Below are positions 9,781 to 46,072 of a stretch of DNA of 64,000 nt, one piece after another; position 1 is the first letter of the stretch; each line of letters begins with the position of its first letter. This stretch comes from Alphaproteobacteria bacterium (GTDB lineage: Bacteria; Pseudomonadota; Alphaproteobacteria; RF32; CAG-239): positions 187,142-251,141 of the forward strand of contig JAFUBQ010000003.1 in NCBI GenBank assembly GCA_017460085.1. The letters run 5' to 3'. The translations under genes and the position numbers were made by a program. Below the pieces are notes generated by a model that worked only from the letters and a program-made list of their open reading frames with translations, was not told the DNA's origin and ran no database searches.

Positions 9781-9871
9781 GAGCAAAGCTTAATGTTAAT
9801 AAAAAAAAGTCTTATTCTTGACATTTAGGCGTAAATGCTTATACATTCGCGAATATAAAGGAGTGATATTG

Positions 9872-10816
9872 ATGAAATATGCTTTTGTATTTCCGGGGCA
9901 GGGTGCACAGTTTGTCGGTATGGGTAAAGAGCTGGCCGATAATTTTGTGACAGCACGTGAGGTTTTTTCCGAAGTTAATGAAGCATTGTCCCAAGATTTA
10001 CTTAAAATCATGATCGAAGGGCCAGATGCTGAATTGACCATGACGGCAAATACACAGCCGGCTTTGATGGCTTTTTCTATGGCTATTGTACGTGTTTTGG
10101 AACACGATTTTGGGCTTAAGCTTAAAGATAAGGCCGCATTTGTTGCCGGTCATTCATTGGGTGAATATTCGGCAGCTTGTGCCGCAGGTGTTTTTTCTCT
10201 TGCAGATACGGCAAAACTCTTACGCATACGCGGGCAAGCCATGCAAAATGCCGTGCCGTTAGGTAAGGGCGGTATGGCTGCAATTATCGGATTGTCGTAT
10301 CAAGATGTCGGTGCATTGGTTGATGCTTGCTCAAACGGGCAGGATATTTGCGTTGCCGCCAACGATAATTCTGATGGACAAGTAGTTCTTTCCGGAGCAA
10401 TAGGAGCAATTGACCGTGCTATGGAAATTGCAACGGAATTTGGGGCGCGGAAGTGCGTTAAATTAGCGGTTAGTGCGCCGTTTCACAGCCCTTATATGGC
10501 GCCGGCTGCCGATGTTATGGCGCGGGCTTTTATGGAAATTGAAGCAAATGATGCACAAATTCCGCTGATTGCTAATGTTTTAGCAGAGCCTATTACACAG
10601 CATAAAGAAATTATTAAACAGCTGATTGCTCAGGTGACCGGTACCGTGCGTTGGCGTGAGACGATGGACTTTTTACATAAACAAAACGTAACTGACGTGG
10701 TTGAGCTTGGTGCCGGTAAAGTTCTTTCCGGGCTTGTTAAACGCAGTTACAAAGATATTAACGCAATCTCGGTCGGTTCAATTTCAGAAATTGAAGAACT
10801 GGCTAAAAATTTATAA
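9872..10816 (+). CDS. fabD: Malonyl-CoA--ACP transacylase
   Basis: MKYAFVFPGQGAQ..., active-site GHSLGE, AAGGAG RBS. The track ORF starts earlier at an in-frame codon. Confidence 0.9.
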   Translation: MKYAFVFPGQGAQFVGMGKELADNFVTAREVFSEVNEALSQDLLKIMIEGPDAELTMTANTQPALMAFSMAIVRVLEHDFGLKLKDKAAFVAGHSLGEYSAACAAGVFSLADTAKLLRIRGQAMQNAVPLGKGGMAAIIGLSYQDVGALVDACSNGQDICVAANDNSDGQVVLSGAIGAIDRAMEIATEFGARKCVKLAVSAPFHSPYMAPAADVMARAFMEIEANDAQIPLIANVLAEPITQHKEIIKQLIAQVTGTVRWRETMDFLHKQNVTDVVELGAGKVLSGLVKRSYKDINAISVGSISEIEELAKNL

Positions 10817-10831
10817 AGAAAGGATGAAAAT

Positions 10832-11569
10832 ATGTTCAGATTAGATGGAAAAGTTGCCTTAATTACCGGTGCTGCCGGTGGCTTAGGGCATAAAATTGCT
10901 CACACATTGCACGACCAAGGTGCAATTTTGGCTTTGACGGATATGAATGCTGAGCGTTTAGAAGCTCTTAAGCAAGAGTTAGGCAGTAATGCTGAGTGTT
11001 TTGTGGCAAATTTAACCGATGCTGAAGCCGTTAAAAATTTAGTGGCTGAAGTAGAAGAAAAAATGGGGCGCATAGATATTTTGGTAAATAATGCTGGTTT
11101 AACTCGCGATAATTTATTTATGCGGATGAGCGACGAAGATTGGCAGTTGGTTTTAGATGTGAACCTTTCAGCCGGTTTCAAATTAGCACGTGCGGCAGTT
11201 CGCGGAATGATTAAGCGCCGTTTCGGCCGCATTATCGGTATTGCTTCTGTTGTTGGTGTTATGGGTAATGCCGGTCAAGCCAACTATTCGGCTTCTAAGG
11301 CCGGTATGATTGCCATGAACAAATGTTTAGCTCAAGAAGTCGGCTCACGCGGGGTAACTGTTAACTCAATTGCACCGGGGTTCATCAGAACGCCAATGAC
11401 AGATGTTTTGCCTGATGATGTTAAAGCTGCTTTGCTTGCTAAAATTCCAGAACAAAAATTGGGCGAGGCACAAGATATTGCTAATGTTGTTGCATTTTTG
11501 GCCTCTGACGAAGCGCAATATATTACCGGCCAAACAATTCATGTTAACGGCGGTATGGCAATGATTTAA
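10832..11569 (+). CDS. fabG: 3-oxoacyl-ACP reductase (SDR)
   Basis: TGAAGGLG Rossmann motif, catalytic YSASKAG, and a NAG motif. Confidence 0.9.
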   Translation: MFRLDGKVALITGAAGGLGHKIAHTLHDQGAILALTDMNAERLEALKQELGSNAECFVANLTDAEAVKNLVAEVEEKMGRIDILVNNAGLTRDNLFMRMSDEDWQLVLDVNLSAGFKLARAAVRGMIKRRFGRIIGIASVVGVMGNAGQANYSASKAGMIAMNKCLAQEVGSRGVTVNSIAPGFIRTPMTDVLPDDVKAALLAKIPEQKLGEAQDIANVVAFLASDEAQYITGQTIHVNGGMAMI

Positions 11570-36477: not shown

Positions 36478-36542
36478 AAATTCACCTTTTTTTCACATTT
36501 TGCGGTTATTGTAACAATAAAACAGTTTAAATGGAAGTAAAA

Positions 36543-37265
36543 ATGGCGGAAAGATTAGCAAAATTTATGGCACGATGCGGTGTTTGTTCACGTCGTGATG
36601 CCGAAGAAATGATAAAACAAAAACGTATTACGGTTAATGGTGAAATTGTTGAAACGCCGGCATTTAATGTGTCGGGAGAAGAAAAAATTTTGCTTGATGG
36701 CGAAAATTTGCCGGTTATACCAAAAACCAGATTGTGGCTTTATCATAAACCGGTTGGCCTTTTAACAACGCATAAAGACAGTGCCAACCGTGCTACGGTT
36801 TTTGAAAATTTGCCGCAGGATATGCCAAGAGTTATCAGTGTGGGACGCTTGGATTTGAATTCGGAGGGTTTGCTTTTGCTAACAAATAACGGCGAGCTTT
36901 CGCGCCAACTTGAATTGCCGCAAAATGCGTGGAGCCGCCGCTATAAAGTTCGGGTACACGGTTATGTTGATTCCAAAAAATTAGCAAAGCTGGCACAAGG
37001 AGTGGAAATTGACGGTGTGCAATATGGTTCGGTGCAAGCACAGCTTGAAAGCCAAAACGGGACAAACAGCTGGATTTTGGTGACATTAAGCGAAGGGAAA
37101 AATCGTGAAGTTCGCAAATTAATGAAGTTTATCGGCTTGGAAGTTGCAAGACTTATTCGCTTATCATATGGTCCGTTTCAGCTAGGAAGTTTGAAAAAAG
37201 GCGAAGTAAGAGAAGTGCCGCAAAAAGTTTTAAGAGAACAGCTTGGAAGTAAATTTAAATTATGA
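36543..37265 (+). CDS. Pseudouridine synthase, RsuA/RluB family with an S4 domain
   Basis: ERLAKFMARCGVCSRR S4 motif and an RLDxxSEGLLLLTNNGEL catalytic Asp region. The track ORF starts 4 codons earlier. Confidence 0.8.
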   Translation: MAERLAKFMARCGVCSRRDAEEMIKQKRITVNGEIVETPAFNVSGEEKILLDGENLPVIPKTRLWLYHKPVGLLTTHKDSANRATVFENLPQDMPRVISVGRLDLNSEGLLLLTNNGELSRQLELPQNAWSRRYKVRVHGYVDSKKLAKLAQGVEIDGVQYGSVQAQLESQNGTNSWILVTLSEGKNREVRKLMKFIGLEVARLIRLSYGPFQLGSLKKGEVREVPQKVLREQLGSKFKL

Positions 37266-37819
37266 GAATAGTCGGAGGAAAATATCGCGGAAAAAAGCTG
37301 TGGTCGCCAGATGGAAAACTTGTGCGTCCCACGGCAGAGCGAGCGCGAGAAGCTGTTTTTAATATTTTATATTCATATTGGCAAGGGGAGTATGAAAATT
37401 TTGATATGGCCGATATCTTTGCCGGTACCGGTGCTTTTGGATTAGAAGCTGTTTCGCGCGGTTTTCGCAGCGCCACATTTGTTGATATTGAGCCAAAAAT
37501 CGTGCAGCGCAATGCCGAATTATTTCCGGCAGAACAGGAAAAATTTTTTATTATTAAAGCAAATGCTTTGAATTTGCCGCGTTTGCCACGGCAGTTTAAA
37601 CTTATTTTTATGGATGCTCCTTATAACAAGGGATTAAGCGAAAATGTTTTAGCGGAATTAATTGCAAAAAATTGGCTAAATGATGACGCACTTTGTATTG
37701 TTGAAGTTCAGGAAAACGAAGATTTGATGTTGCCGCCGGAATTACAAATTGCAGATATTCGCCGCTATGGTTTGGCAAAAATTTTGTTTTTACAAAAGCA
37801 AGTGAAGAAAGGAATTTAA
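37262..37819 (+). CDS. rsmD: 16S rRNA (guanine966-N2)-methyltransferase
   Basis: DIFAGTGAFGLEAVSRG SAM motif and a DAPY motif. Confidence 0.8.
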   Translation: MRIVGGKYRGKKLWSPDGKLVRPTAERAREAVFNILYSYWQGEYENFDMADIFAGTGAFGLEAVSRGFRSATFVDIEPKIVQRNAELFPAEQEKFFIIKANALNLPRLPRQFKLIFMDAPYNKGLSENVLAELIAKNWLNDDALCIVEVQENEDLMLPPELQIADIRRYGLAKILFLQKQVKKGI

Positions 37820-37821
37820 TT

Positions 37822-38976
37822 ATGCAAGAGGAAAATACTTTAGTGATGAATATGGGAACAAATGCTGAAAAAAAATCGGCATGGCGATATTTTGTGGAAT
37901 GTATCAGCAAAAAATATTGCTGCTTTAAGGGAAGGGCAAATCGCAAGGAATTTTGGGGATTTGTTTTTTATTGTTTTTTGTTTACGCTGATTGTATCGGC
38001 GGCGCTTAATTTGCTATTAAAAGACGATACAATCATCGGCTATGCTGAAAATGTATGGTCTTTTGCTTTATTGTTGCCTTATTTAGGTGTTATTGTTCGG
38101 CGTTTGCATGATGTCGGATTTTCCGGTAAATGGTTTTTAGGATTTTTGCTTCTTGTATTTATGGTTGCCATTTTTACCGCAGCATTTTCCGTAATGAAAA
38201 AAATGGGGTCGGAAGTTTCTAGCAATGCAAATTTTGTTAAAACAGCAAGTTTTGGTGTTTTGAGTATTGTGATGCTTGGCATGTTTATATTCTTGCTGGT
38301 ATGTATGTTTTTACCGGGGCAAAAAAAGGTCAACAAATATGGAGCAATATCAGAGAGCGGAGAAAAACATTGGTTTTGGTATATGCTTGCATACATACTT
38401 TTTGTTTGGGGTTTTGTTTTTAGTGTAGGTTTTATCAGCGGGTATTCAAAAGCTACGTTTCGCATACGCTTAAATGGTATAATTGACCAAACTGCATTTT
38501 TGGTTGACGGAGCAAGAACTTTATATAGCGGAAAAACAAGCTATGCGGGAATTAATATGGAAAAACTGGCTGCTGCCGGAGGTATAAGTGAGCAACTTGT
38601 GCAAAATTCTGAAGGAAATTTTGCTCTGATTAATCCTTATGGCGGTTTGACCGAAATTATGGTTGGTAATAAAGCTGAAAATGGAGATGATAAAGCAATT
38701 TTAGTTAAGTTTACCGAAGTTCCAGCAGCAAGTTGTATGGCTTTGAGCAAATTCTCTTGGGGTAATTTGCAAACTGGATTTATAGCTTTGCTGGCAGATG
38801 ACGGAACGCCAATGTATGATAAATACATTGATTTTGCTACGATAAACAGTTGTCAAAGTGTTGCTCAATTCAAATATATGTTGGTTTGCGGCGACGATGC
38901 TGATTTTAGGGCAAAAATAGATGAAAATGCAGCTTGTCAGGGAGATAAAAACACCATAATTCTCAAATTTTTCTAA
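37822..38976 (+). CDS. DUF805 (YhaH-like) inner-membrane domain fused to a TM-anchored Cys-containing C-terminal domain, possibly pilin-like
   Basis: N-terminal half shows GRANRKEFWGF...RRLHDVGFSGKW...KVNKYG DUF805 signatures. It is followed by an extra TM and a 180-aa soluble domain with two Cys pairs. Confidence 0.5.
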   Translation: MQEENTLVMNMGTNAEKKSAWRYFVECISKKYCCFKGRANRKEFWGFVFYCFLFTLIVSAALNLLLKDDTIIGYAENVWSFALLLPYLGVIVRRLHDVGFSGKWFLGFLLLVFMVAIFTAAFSVMKKMGSEVSSNANFVKTASFGVLSIVMLGMFIFLLVCMFLPGQKKVNKYGAISESGEKHWFWYMLAYILFVWGFVFSVGFISGYSKATFRIRLNGIIDQTAFLVDGARTLYSGKTSYAGINMEKLAAAGGISEQLVQNSEGNFALINPYGGLTEIMVGNKAENGDDKAILVKFTEVPAASCMALSKFSWGNLQTGFIALLADDGTPMYDKYIDFATINSCQSVAQFKYMLVCGDDADFRAKIDENAACQGDKNTIILKFF

Positions 38977-40295
38977 TGCTGCAAAAAAAGGAATACGAAG
39001 TGAATAATAAAGTTTTGCTATATTGTCGTTTTGTAATTGCGCTGGCGGTTGCTGTTGTTTGCGGATTGGCTTTTTGGGGGCATATTTATCCACTGCATAT
39101 TTTTGATGCACAGTTTACTGCGGCGCTGCAAAGCGGCATTGTTTCCGGTTTGGGATTAAGCGTAGTTTTGTTGCTGTTGGTGGTTTTGTTCACCTTGCTG
39201 TTCGGGCGAATTTATTGCTCAACATTATGTCCGTTGGGAATATATCAGGAATTGCTGACAATTTTATTTAAGCCGTTTTATAAAAAACGCAAATTTGCGG
39301 TGCAAAAACATTATGTTTGGGCATATACTTTAGCGGCAGTATTGTTTGGAACATTGTTTGGCGGCACTGCTGTTTTGCTAAGAATGCTTGATCCGTATTC
39401 TGTTGTCGGAAATGCAATGAGCGGGGCAATCTTCGGATTAGGATTTATACTGGCCTTAACGGTTTTAGTGTTTTTTAAAAAACGTTTTTTTTGCACAAAC
39501 ATTTGTCCGGTCGGAGCAATTTTAGGTTTTATTTCCCGCTTTTCCTTATTTAAAATCCGCATTGATGCAGATAAATGCAAAATGTGTAGTTTATGCGCCA
39601 GTTCTTGCCCGTGCGGCTCAATAGATTTTAAAAATCGGTCGGTTAATAATGAAACTTGTGTGAAATGTTTTAAATGTTTGGTACATTGTAGCCACGGAGC
39701 TTTATATTACGGTTTGCCTAAAGCCAAAAAAGTTGAGTTCAATGCAAGCCGCCGGCAAATAATTAAGGCCGGATTGGTTTTAGCAATTTTTGGAGCGGCA
39801 TTTAGAGGCGGAATTGATTTATCTAAAAAAGCGGCGGCAAAAGTTAAACAAGCTATTTTACCGGCAGGGAGCAGAAATGCGGCAGATTTTGCTAATCGCT
39901 GCCTAAATTGTAATTTATGTGTACAAAATTGCCCGATGAAAATTATTAAGCCGGCAACAGCGGAAACGCCGTTTGTGCATTTGGATTATAACGGCTATTT
40001 TTGCGATTATAATTGTCATCAATGTTCTTTAAGCTGCCCAAGCGGCGCAATTGAACATATTACATTGGCGCAAAAACAAAACACTAAAATTGCTAATGCG
40101 GTTGTCGATGAAGATATGTGCGTCAAATGCGGTTTGTGTGCGGGAGAATGTCCGCGGCATATTATTATTAAGGAAGACGGAAAATATCCGCTGATTCGTT
40201 TTGATGAGTGTATTGGTTGCGGGGCATGTGCTGCCGTATGTCCGGTGAAAGCCATTAAAATTGAACCGGTGGCAAAGCAAGTTAAATTATATTAA
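38976..40295 (+). CDS. Membrane-bound polyferredoxin (NapH/MauN/CcoG/YccM-like) with 2 CxxxCP plus 6 [4Fe-4S] motifs
   Basis: TM-embedded CSTLCPLG and CTNICPVG, then six CxxCxxCxxxC(P) clusters. Its start overlaps the stop of the upstream gene. Confidence 0.6.
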
Positions 40296-40305
40296 GGAGG
40301 AAAAA

Positions 40306-40572
40306 ATGTCATTAGGTGTAACAGAAATAATTTTAATTTTAGTAGTGGTTTTGGTGCTTTTCGGCGGTAAAAAAATACCGGAGTTAGCGCGCGGTTTGGG
40401 CAAAGCGCAGGCTGAATATAAAAAAGCCAAAGAAATGATAGAAAATGAAGTAAGCGAATTTAAGGCAGAAGCCGAAAAAGCCGCAACTGAAGAAACAAAG
40501 AAAAAAACGGTTAGAAAAACTGCAACAAAAAAGCCGGCAATAAAAAAGACAAGCGCAAAATCTAAAAAATAA
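40306..40572 (+). CDS. tatA: Twin-arginine translocase subunit TatA
   Basis: [46 protein letters not shown]-rich tail. Confidence 0.8.
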
Positions 40573-41288
40573 TGGCAGAAGCAAAAGAACAAACATTAAT
40601 TGAGCATTTGGAAGAACTGCGGGCAGTATTAATTAGATGTCTGTTGGCCTTAGCCTGCGGTTTGGTGCCAATGTTTTTGCTTGCGCCATATGTTATGGAC
40701 GCACTGATAAATGTTATGATGGGAAAAAATGAAATTCAGCTCAATTTTTTTTCGCCGATGGAAGTTTTTATTTTGCAAATTAAAATGGCTTTGGTTTTGG
40801 ATATTCTGCTGTGTTTTCCTTATATGGCAAAGCAGATATGGAACTTCATTTTACCGGCGCTGTATGAGAATGAGCGTAATTTTATAAAATCTATCATTTT
40901 GGCATCAAGCGGGCTTTTTATAGTCGGTGTGTTATTTTGCTTGTTTTTTATTTTACCATCGCTCATTCGTTTCGGTATGAGCTTTGTTACTGAAAATATT
41001 CAGGCAATGTTTGGCATTGGCAATGTTATTTCTCTTGCTTTGTGGCTGTCATTGGTTTTTGGCATAATGTTCCAGTTTCCGCTTATTACATATGCCTTAA
41101 TACGTTCAGACATAGTGTCATATGAAACAATAAAATCTAAACGCACTTATATATTTGTCGGCATTTTGATTTTATCCGGCTTATTAACCCCGCCGGATAT
41201 TGTGAGCCAAATAATGTTGACAATTCCAACTTACAGCCTGTTTGAAATAGGCTTATTTTGCGGAAAAAAACAACGTAAAATTTATTAA
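40572..41288 (+). CDS. tatC: Twin-arginine translocase subunit TatC
   Basis: 238 aa with 6 TM segments. LIEHLEELR N-terminal motif. Start overlaps the tatA stop. Confidence 0.9.
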   Translation: MAEAKEQTLIEHLEELRAVLIRCLLALACGLVPMFLLAPYVMDALINVMMGKNEIQLNFFSPMEVFILQIKMALVLDILLCFPYMAKQIWNFILPALYENERNFIKSIILASSGLFIVGVLFCLFFILPSLIRFGMSFVTENIQAMFGIGNVISLALWLSLVFGIMFQFPLITYALIRSDIVSYETIKSKRTYIFVGILILSGLLTPPDIVSQIMLTIPTYSLFEIGLFCGKKQRKIY

Positions 41289-41382: not shown

Positions 41383-41703
41383 ATGAAAAAGAAAATTTAT
41401 ATTGAGCCGTTGCGTGTGCATACGGCTACTGCAGACAAGCGAGTTAACTTGTTTGTACAAAAAGGTAAAGCGTTTTACGTTTGCTCAACACGGGTAAACG
41501 GCAAAGACACTAAAGAGGTAAAGCCACTTGCCATTCAGATGCCTGATGAAGTGGCCGCCGAGCTGAAAAAGTTGGCGAAGGTGAATGCCTCGTGTGTTTG
41601 GGTGGACTATGTGCCGCAGAAGTCGCGGCTTACGCCCAAGACCTATGAATTTATCTACAACTGCTGGGAGCAGATTGTAGCCGCAGAGCCTGACTGGTTC
41701 TGA
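41383..41703 (+). CDS. Hypothetical 106-aa protein (ORFan) with higher GC than its neighbours
   Basis: Clean ORF with its own promoter and terminator. No recognisable motifs. Confidence 0.4.
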   Translation: MKKKIYIEPLRVHTATADKRVNLFVQKGKAFYVCSTRVNGKDTKEVKPLAIQMPDEVAAELKKLAKVNASCVWVDYVPQKSRLTPKTYEFIYNCWEQIVAAEPDWF

Positions 41704-45700: not shown

Positions 45701-46072
45701 ATGTTCGGATGGATATTGGTCATTATCGTTGTATTAGCAATTTTCAATGCTGAAAGATTGCCGGCTTTAAGGCAGCAATTAGAAGAAAAATTAAAAGGCA
45801 GCGTGGTTGCGGCTAAAGAAGGTTCTAAATTAGCTAAAGATAAAATTCAAAAAGTTAAAACCGATATTGAAAATAAAAAAACAACCGTTGCTCAAGCAGA
45901 AGCAGAAGAAAATACACCGGAAGAAATTGCCGAATCGATGGAATTTATGGGTACATTTGTGCAGGAACACGAAAATAAAAAATCGGCAAAATCACAACCT
46001 AAAAAAACTGAAAAAAAAGTTGAAACAGAAGAAAAACAAGATTCTGCTGACGATGGTAAAGTTACTTTGTAG
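45701..46072 (+). CDS. TatA/TatB-like protein, divergent (hinge Gly replaced)
   Basis: N-terminal TM helix followed by NAERLPAL, an amphipathic helix and a K/E tail. It lacks the canonical FG(P/T)K hinge. Confidence 0.4.
   Translation: MFGWILVIIVVLAIFNAERLPALRQQLEEKLKGSVVAAKEGSKLAKDKIQKVKTDIENKKTTVAQAEAEENTPEEIAESMEFMGTFVQEHENKKSAKSQPKKTEKKVETEEKQDSADDGKVTL

Follow-up and report, generated by a model that had tools for sequence, protein, structure and literature searches.

A polyferredoxin with a predicted internal twin-arginine signal, encoded directly upstream of tatA-tatC and beside a DUF805-pilin fusion in an uncultured gut alphaproteobacterium

Results and discussion

Overview of the locus

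A 64-kb stretch of DNA from an uncultured ruminant-gut alphaproteobacterium (the window) was analysed around six co-directional, closely spaced genes on the + strand, namely rluB, rsmD, ORF A, ORF B, tatA and tatC (ORF, open reading frame; Table 1). An initial annotation of this DNA had treated the two central genes as one unit. The two frames that it described (384 and 439 aa) were confirmed on the + strand at 37822-38976 and 38976-40295, as was their position between rRNA-modification genes (rluB and rsmD, upstream) and tatA-tatC (downstream). The reading that we favour, with a probability of roughly 0.65, is nevertheless that ORF A and ORF B are unrelated neighbours: ORF B is a NapH-NapG fusion polyferredoxin whose outer half would be exported by the twin-arginine translocation (Tat) system and which forms a conserved unit with tatA-tatC, while ORF A, a DUF805 domain joined to a pilin-like head, would be incidental to that unit.

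Table 1. Coordinates of the features discussed, as positions in the 64-kb window.
Feature	Position	Strand	Description
ORF B	39000-40295	+	NapH-NapG fusion polyferredoxin, 431 aa from GTG 39000; longest ORF 38976-40295, 439 aa
Twin-arginine codons R259-R260	39750-39755	+	Motif SRRQIIK; numbering of the 439-aa ORF
Weakly hydrophobic fifth transmembrane segment	39759-39803	+	Residues 262-276; followed by a K/R-rich stretch
NapG-like domain, four 4Fe-4S motifs	39858-40292	+	Predicted periplasmic; Fer4 families, NapG model, Cys conservation
tatA	40306-40572	+	88 aa; 10 nt past the ORF B stop; ATG 40306 is the true start, after an AGGAGG ribosome-binding site
tatC	40572-41288	+	238 aa; start shares one base with the tatA stop
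ORF A	37822-38976	+	384-aa membrane protein, DUF805 domain and type IVb pilin-like head
DUF805 domain of ORF A	37918-38346	+	Residues 33-175; PF05656, E = 3e-20
Long helix of ORF A	38368-38523	+	Residues 183-234, 52 residues (AlphaFold2); fifth membrane helix running into a pilin alpha-1-like helix
Pilin-homologous part of ORF A	38416-38973	+	Residues 199-384
rluB	36531-37265	+	Context; Pfam and NCBIfam profile matches
rsmD	37262-37819	+	Context; profile matches; 2-nt gap to ORF A

Architecture of the polyferredoxin

The N-terminal half of ORF B contains two Fer4_5 repeats, with the CxxxCP motifs CSTLCP and CTNICP, as well as two four-cysteine sites, and aligns to the NapH/MauN models. Further on, the NapG model NF007012 aligns to residues 252-430 from profile position 4, which means that the match begins in NapG's own signal peptide. 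In total, the protein carries six four-cysteine cluster sites and the two CxxxCP motifs, that is 28 cysteines, all of them at least 99% conserved among 79 species. The initial annotation had described a six-cluster, NapH-type polyferredoxin; the two CxxxCP motifs, the six sites and the NapH-like N-terminus agree with this, but the canonical form CxxCxxCxxxCP is present in only four of the six cluster motifs, the one at C228-C238 ending in CS and the one at C343-C354 beginning with CxxxC. The scores of ORF B fall below the cut-offs for NapH proper (TIGR02163, 93.0 vs 213 bits; NF007013, 90.6 vs 234 bits) and NapG proper (NF007012, 42.8 vs 269 bits), so the protein is best classified by its profile matches as NapGH-like and not as NapGH proper. 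The gene is intact and conserved, which is at odds with its being a pseudogenised remnant of a nap/ccoG operon, an outcome that the initial annotation had allowed for. A sequence search of the PDB gave hits for the C-terminal half alone, all of them generic polyferredoxins (MvhB, FwdF, RnfB); the NapH-like membrane part had no match.

The feature which is key to the tat adjacency, and which was absent from the initial annotation, is an internal twin-arginine signal-anchor spanning residues 256-276. Its arginine pair (RR), R259-R260, is invariant in 19 of 19 aligned homologues and in all 80 species sequences covering the site, and it belongs to the sole RR-plus-hydrophobic motif found across the ORFs of the window. 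Four hydrophobic segments precede the pair and one follows it, that is an even number of helices before the RR and one after, and the AlphaFold2 model, which is of low confidence, places helices at residues 2-31, 46-76, 114-138, 147-168 and 257-275. The summed insertion free energy (dG, Hessa scale) of the fifth segment is +4.2 in ORF B and averages +4.1 +/- 1.2 over 19 homologues, as against -0.1 to -3.0 for segments one to four; these values are approximate, and no position term was applied. According to Tooke et al. (2017, PMC5449189), membrane proteins targeted by both Sec and Tat are recognised by an even number of membrane helices ahead of a conserved RR motif, a single Tat-dependent helix of low hydrophobicity (positive predicted dGapp) right behind it, and positive charges C-terminal to that helix. 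ORF B shows a conserved RR pair, a weakly hydrophobic fifth helix with C-terminal positive charges, a C-terminal domain with four 4Fe-4S sites and a NapH-like N-terminus, and thus appears to be a six-cluster member of this dual Sec/Tat-targeted polyferredoxin class. The suggestion that the polyferredoxin is of an undescribed kind does not hold, as NapH-NapG fusions with an internal RR have already been shown to be dual Sec/Tat substrates in the same source.

The TAATG overlap at 38974-38978, through which the stop of ORF A and the start of ORF B were said to share nt 38976, is real for the longest ORF, and this start is the one used by gene callers. The homologues, however, begin at the position of GTG 39000 (with TTG in a 94%-identical relative and ATG in a 76% relative), and an AGG/GAGG motif lies 7-9 nt 5' of each such start. 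The polyferredoxin therefore likely starts at GTG 39000 and not at the overlapping ATG 38976, in which case the real gap between the two genes is probably 23 nt and there is no overlap.

Conservation of the polyferredoxin-tatA-tatC unit

The two genes downstream of ORF B are readily assigned: tatA scores 56.1 bits against TIGR01411 (cut-off 53.9), and tatC scores 162.6 bits against TIGR00945 (cut-off 132.7) and matches PF00902 with E = 1e-56. Conservation of the neighbourhood was followed in 80 related species-level loci, all from metagenome-assembled genomes (MAGs) of gut or rumen Alphaproteobacteria, 76 of which have enough downstream sequence. At 60 of these 76 loci, tatA-tatC lies directly 3' of the polyferredoxin. 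The same order was found in loci L002-L007, L088, L090 and L091, among which are metagenome contigs of relatives at 54%, 74%, 76% and 94% identity. The gene on the 5' side varies, being a glycosyltransferase, DUF362 or cstA gene, or ORF A in the window. In the 94% relative (L088, 1-6026), the block comes after fabD-fabG-cstA, while in the window fabD and the next ORF (9818-11569, the next ORF, 10832-11569, being unscanned) are found 28 kb away from the block (39000-41288). These different surroundings indicate that the three genes moved together between close lineages. The conserved unit, as judged from gene order, appears to be polyferredoxin-tatA-tatC, a Tat client beside its translocase; the polyferredoxin would precede tatA-tatC because its outer half carries an internal Tat signal and needs Tat export.

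A number of other observations were made in these loci. One MAG has two copies of the polyferredoxin gene, one with and one without tat genes (L009, L026). The record titles of L050, L054, L055, L064, L065 and L075 include Bacteroidaceae, [Ruminococcus] gnavus, Limosilactobacillus gorillae and Lachnospiraceae, which probably reflects mislabelling or contamination of the bins. A polytopic metallophosphoesterase (YaeI/LpxG-like, 368 aa; L076, 11290-12396) often adjoins the polyferredoxin or tatC, with homologues in L015, L016, L020, L038, L039, L077, L078 and L083. Polytopic YkuE-like phosphoesterases are another Sec/Tat family in the list of Tooke et al. (2017, PMC5449189); in the L076 copy, the last helix had no RR pair ahead of it.

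ORF A, a DUF805-pilin fusion

The DUF805 domain of ORF A scores 73.1 bits against a Pfam cut-off of 25.7 and comprises four predicted membrane helices (residues 41-65, 69-97, 103-127 and 134-163 in the AlphaFold2 model). Further along, residues ~224-330 pass the Pfam cut-offs of two pilin families, PilS (PF08805, 34.5 vs 22 bits) and Bundlin (PF05307, 32.1 vs 22.3 bits), and residues 199-384 can be aligned over their full length to residues 37-234 of a genuine L017 prepilin (E = 2e-15). A profile search of the PDB retrieved BfpA (1zwt, E = 3.5e-13), with TcpA and PilS also matched. The AlphaFold2 model, with a predicted local distance difference test score (pLDDT) of 78.6, shows the four DUF805 helices, a 52-residue helix and a beta-sheet head, and the best five Foldseek matches are all type IVb pilins (PilS, TcpA), with TM-scores of 0.56-0.66 normalised by target. 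Two cysteines, C305 (38734-38736) and C372 (38935-38937), are invariant across 21 relatives, in fusions as well as in pilins, which is consistent with a periplasmic, disulfide-bonded head. The proposal of a DUF805 domain fused to a pilin-like domain with a cysteine pair is hence borne out by profile matches, and structure prediction gives the C-terminal domain a type IVb pilin fold.

The part of a pilin which is processed is missing. Prepilins of the related genomes read G and then RSMIEMLGVLAIIG at the cleavage site, and many prepilin paralogues in those genomes start with G followed by RSMIEMLGVLAIIGVLSVGGIAGYSKAM. Real prepilins have a leader and then GRSMIEMLGVLAIIG, both of which are replaced in ORF A, where ~180 residues carrying the DUF805 domain stand before the pilin part instead of a leader and the N-terminal half of alpha-1. 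The residues of the prepilin site, Gly(-1) and Glu(+5), are both missing from ORF A, which has W and L at these positions if one counts backwards by eye from the GYSKA motif common to both. The missing class III signal peptide means that ORF A can be regarded as pilin-like but, as predicted from its sequence, not as a pilin subunit. Having no prepilin-peptidase site, the protein should remain in the inner membrane and not enter a pilus, and it should thus be an inner-membrane-resident pilin mimic incapable of polymerising.

The possibility that ORF A is an artefact of two joined genes was ruled out, since about 20 clusters, at 22-35% identity, retain the fusion. This fusion family (P0001-P0004 and ~15 more) was found among 1.84 billion representatives searched. 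Pilin heads also occur on large non-pilin N-terminal domains, in P0163 (869 aa) and P0205 (706 aa). The literature on DUF805 yielded passing mentions of the domain, from which no function could be found. As for ordinary prepilins, paralogues sharing a near-identical N-terminus (GRSMIEMLGVLAIIGVLSVGGIAGYSKAM) and having divergent heads are seen in L017 (four copies, at ~1245, 9549, 16524 and 20618), L029 and L054, and two such paralogues adjoin a polyferredoxin, probably by chance. No ordinary prepilin gene was found in the window with a scan for the prepilin-leader motif.

Linkage between ORF A and the polyferredoxin

The exact ORF A protein was found on eight contigs, and the gene order is the same in the four places shown (ruminant metagenome samples), as well as in a 96% relative. 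A translationally coupled pair, which together with Tat would make a new module delivering electrons to a surface or pilus-like acceptor, could be read from this arrangement: the genes are adjacent, co-directional and at most 23 nt apart, their arrangement is unchanged in several samples of this species (at least four contigs) and in the 96% relative, and each protein places a domain in the periplasm. On the other hand, a relative of ORF A lies upstream of the polyferredoxin in none of the 80 species loci, cstA is in that place for the 94%-identical polyferredoxin, and the relatives of ORF A at 34% identity (P0002 and P0003; L001 and L089) have other neighbours and no adjacent polyferredoxin. 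Moreover, the start supported by homologues removes the overlap, and the pilin head has neither Cys-rich nor haem motifs beyond the structural disulfide. We therefore consider such a module very unlikely, and the treatment of the two genes as one unit is not supported. Judging from these neighbourhoods, ORF A appears to be a chance neighbour, its adjacency to the polyferredoxin being specific to this species.

Genomic context in the window

About 60 of the larger ORFs of the window were scanned against Pfam, some of them being left without any family match. The families found are housekeeping ones only (groES/EL, metG, relA/spoT, tgt, gyrB, fabD and others), and no reductase, oxidase, cytochrome or pilus-machinery genes were seen among the ORFs scanned, which agrees with the earlier observation that no respiratory reductase or oxidase is nearby. 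An Rfam scan of the window gave a single tRNA and no riboswitch or other RNA element. In the region 35.9-41.9 kb, the counts of promoter and terminator signals were not above the shuffled expectation, the sole yields being a promoter-like site ahead of rluB and, following groEL, a strong hairpin, so that the operon structure is deduced from gene spacing alone.

Two small ORFs on the + strand were noted in addition. The first, an orphan of 106 aa (41383-41703) just 3' of tatC, is annotated as a gene on every contig of this species; it has no Pfam or NCBIfam match and tblastn was blank in the 80 related loci. The second (123 aa, 45701-46072) follows nagZ and, with its N-terminal helix and hinge (...FNAERLPALR...), looks by eye like TatA/TatB. 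Its identification as TatB was rejected, as Pfam was blank and BLASTP against TatA gave E = 0.73, and it stays a by-eye resemblance. A homologue of this ORF (L025, 9463-9879) is found directly upstream of a polyferredoxin.

A candidate periplasmic partner in related genomes

In related genomes, a 412-aa protein consisting of a Tat signal (MNRREFLMSTLAAFAFAALP), an aldo-keto reductase (AKR) domain and a two-cluster ferredoxin domain (hereafter AKR-FeS) is encoded within 10 kb of the polyferredoxin at 45 of the 80 loci, and at 27 of the 37 loci with full flanks. Genes for LarB, LarC and LarE, all above the NCBIfam cut-offs, usually come after it, followed by a 218-aa membrane protein without a family match; clusters with all five are found for example at L005 (10298-16125), L090 (8865-13614) and L064 (5864-9982). 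A DUF362 gene is often near the cluster, and DUF362 belongs to the same Pfam clan as LarA. One DUF362 protein (L013, 190-1173) was seen with an RR signal. According to Semersky et al. (2026, Nat Chem, PMC13524815), AKRs encoded beside larBCE use a nickel-pincer cofactor.

An unbiased scan of the 80 loci for Tat signals gave AKR-FeS at 38 loci, a metallo-beta-lactamase (MBL)-fold protein at 7 and a flavodoxin-like protein at 3. The latter two are exemplified by a 365-aa protein (L008, 8772-9869) and a 212-aa protein (L043, 3839-4477), respectively. These results bear on whether the polyferredoxin is an ordinary quinol dehydrogenase of the NapGH/NosGH/MauMN type, serving a classical periplasmic reductase (nitrate, nitrous oxide or nitrite) encoded elsewhere, the AKR-FeS of relatives being coincidental. 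The best family matches are indeed NapH/MauN and NapG, and NapGH works as a quinol dehydrogenase in E. coli and Wolinella, as cited in Tooke et al. (PMC5449189). However, the scores do not come near the equivalog cut-offs for NapH and NapG, families of molybdoenzymes or cytochromes are missing among the called genes of L002-L007, L088, L090 and L091 or the window ORFs scanned, and the Tat-signal proteins are mainly AKR-FeS, then MBL-fold and flavodoxin-like ones. Such a role for the polyferredoxin is in our view unlikely.

Based on gene neighbourhood in relatives only, AKR-FeS is the likely periplasmic partner of the polyferredoxin. The combination of a lar-linked, Tat-exported AKR-FeS, a NapHG-type conduit and a translocase suggests that these constitute one periplasmic redox system. 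A broader proposal, which we put forward as possible but doubtful, is that polyferredoxin-TatA-TatC is the membrane core of an undescribed periplasmic redox system of gut Alphaproteobacteria, in which a Tat-exported AKR with two 4Fe-4S clusters and a nickel-pincer cofactor, supplied by the neighbouring LarB, LarC and LarE, is wired through the polyferredoxin to the quinone pool and hydride chemistry on sugars or carbonyls outside the cytoplasm is coupled to membrane electron transport, the species of the window keeping the core and having the enzyme elsewhere.

Proposed mechanism

Following the mechanism of Tooke et al. and the homology to NapGH, Sec would insert the first four helices, which carry the two CxxxCP motifs, and two 4Fe-4S clusters would remain on the cytoplasmic side. 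The SRRQIIK motif, together with the weakly hydrophobic fifth helix and the positive charges following it, would then cause Sec to release this segment, after which TatA-TatC would move the already folded, four-cluster NapG-like domain into the periplasm. The mature polyferredoxin would form a chain of Fe-S clusters across the membrane, linking the quinol pool (or donors in the cytoplasm) to Fe-S enzymes of the periplasm by electron transfer. The likely partner, going by the neighbourhoods in relatives, would be the Tat-exported AKR with two 4Fe-4S clusters encoded with larB-larC-larE, and in the species of the window its gene may be elsewhere in the genome or lost. As for ORF A, its DUF805 four-helix domain, fifth helix and periplasmic type IVb pilin head would be kept in the inner membrane. 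This evidence fits the broad notion, already put forward in the initial annotation, that electrons are conducted across the membrane to an acceptor in the periplasm.

Several points weigh against this picture. The scores of ORF B, being so far under the equivalog cut-offs, make quinol oxidation an analogy and not a matter of family membership. The genes for AKR-FeS and LarB/C/E are absent from the 64-kb window, as are those for DUF362 and the 218-aa protein (tblastn). No more than 23 nt separate ORF A from the polyferredoxin, and the order of the two recurs in different samples of this species, on at least four contigs; they may be co-transcribed and may have some functional tie. The AlphaFold2 model of ORF B is poor (mean pLDDT 54.8), so that the topology rests on sequence features; 16 loci retain the RR without adjacent tat genes; and all 80 loci come from one clade of gut Alphaproteobacteria, for which part of the synteny may be inheritance and not selection. 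These last three points would also suit a protein whose C-terminal four-cluster domain is cytoplasmic, that is a membrane ferredoxin facing the cytoplasm, next to which tatA-tatC are inherited synteny without meaning. Against this, the RR is invariant in 80 species and is followed by a helix with the low hydrophobicity and trailing positive charge typical of Tat-dependent helices, the NapG alignment begins at the NapG signal peptide, and the three genes are kept together while both flanks change, even between 94%-identical relatives. A cytoplasmic location is accordingly rated as very unlikely, and a Tat-exported outer half is retained as the preferred reading.

In the literature consulted, we did not find descriptions of the client-translocase operon conserved in this clade, the lar/AKR-FeS neighbourhood in relatives or the DUF805-pilin architecture. 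What is known of dual Sec/Tat-targeted membrane proteins comes from a few reporter experiments, and this locus would bring together a natural client and a minimal TatA-TatC in one operon, in dozens of species; such an operon would support the dual Sec/Tat mechanism and provide a compact system for studying it. In relatives, the genes around the polyferredoxin raise the possibility of a periplasmic, Fe-S-wired AKR, which would be the first of its kind among the recently discovered nickel-pincer AKRs; this link, if true, would provide a role for the 'orphan' NapGH-like polyferredoxins found in gut bacteria. The DUF805-pilin fusion indicates that pilin heads are reused as periplasmic modules on non-pilin membrane anchors, and it is one of few clues to the function of DUF805 proteins.

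Comparison with known systems

The closest parallel to ORF B is the polytopic polyferredoxin of the delta proteobacterium MLMS-1 (Q1NSB0), a NapH-NapG fusion with an RR before its fifth transmembrane helix; reporters placed beyond this helix depended on both Tat and the RR (Tooke et al. 2017, eLife, PMC5449189). Both proteins would have five helices, with the RR directly before a weakly hydrophobic last helix, positive charges and then four 4Fe-4S sites. ORF B differs in having two cytoplasmic clusters instead of three, in being shorter (fifth helix at ~262-276 vs 338-359) and in coming from gut Alphaproteobacteria. The text examined of the same article makes no mention of a conserved place directly upstream of tatA-tatC. 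Compared with NapG/NapH of E. coli and Wolinella succinogenes (and likewise MauM/MauN and NosG/NosH), ORF B has the same kind of NapH part, with four helices, two CxxxCP motifs and two cytoplasmic clusters, and resembles NapG in its Tat signal and four clusters. It is however a single polypeptide instead of two and scores well below the equivalog cut-offs, and neither the window nor the Pfam-annotated loci L002-L007, L088, L090 and L091 showed any nap, nos or mau genes.

For the gene arrangement, the parallel is the phoD-tatAd-tatCd operon of Bacillus subtilis, in which a Tat substrate gene stands with those of a minimal TatA-TatC translocase. In both cases the client gene is directly with tatA and tatC and there is no tatB in the operon, but PhoD is a secreted enzyme with an N-terminal signal, whereas the client encoded by ORF B is polytopic with an internal one. 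The head of ORF A resembles the type IVb pilins BfpA (bundlin), PilS and TcpA in its sequence profile, predicted fold, long alpha-1, beta-sheet and conserved cysteine pair, and differs from them in having a DUF805 membrane domain in place of the leader, the G(-1)/E(+5) site and the first half of alpha-1. Finally, the AKR-FeS of relatives is comparable to NphT and other lar-linked nickel-pincer AKRs in that its gene lies beside larB, larC and larE, with no larA seen nearby, this comparison being one of gene neighbourhood. It differs from them in its twin-arginine signal, its C-terminal two-cluster ferredoxin domain and the adjacent NapHG-type polyferredoxin and tatAC genes; Semersky et al. (2026, PMC13524815) make no mention of Fe-S domains, Tat, the periplasm or polyferredoxin or tatAC neighbours.

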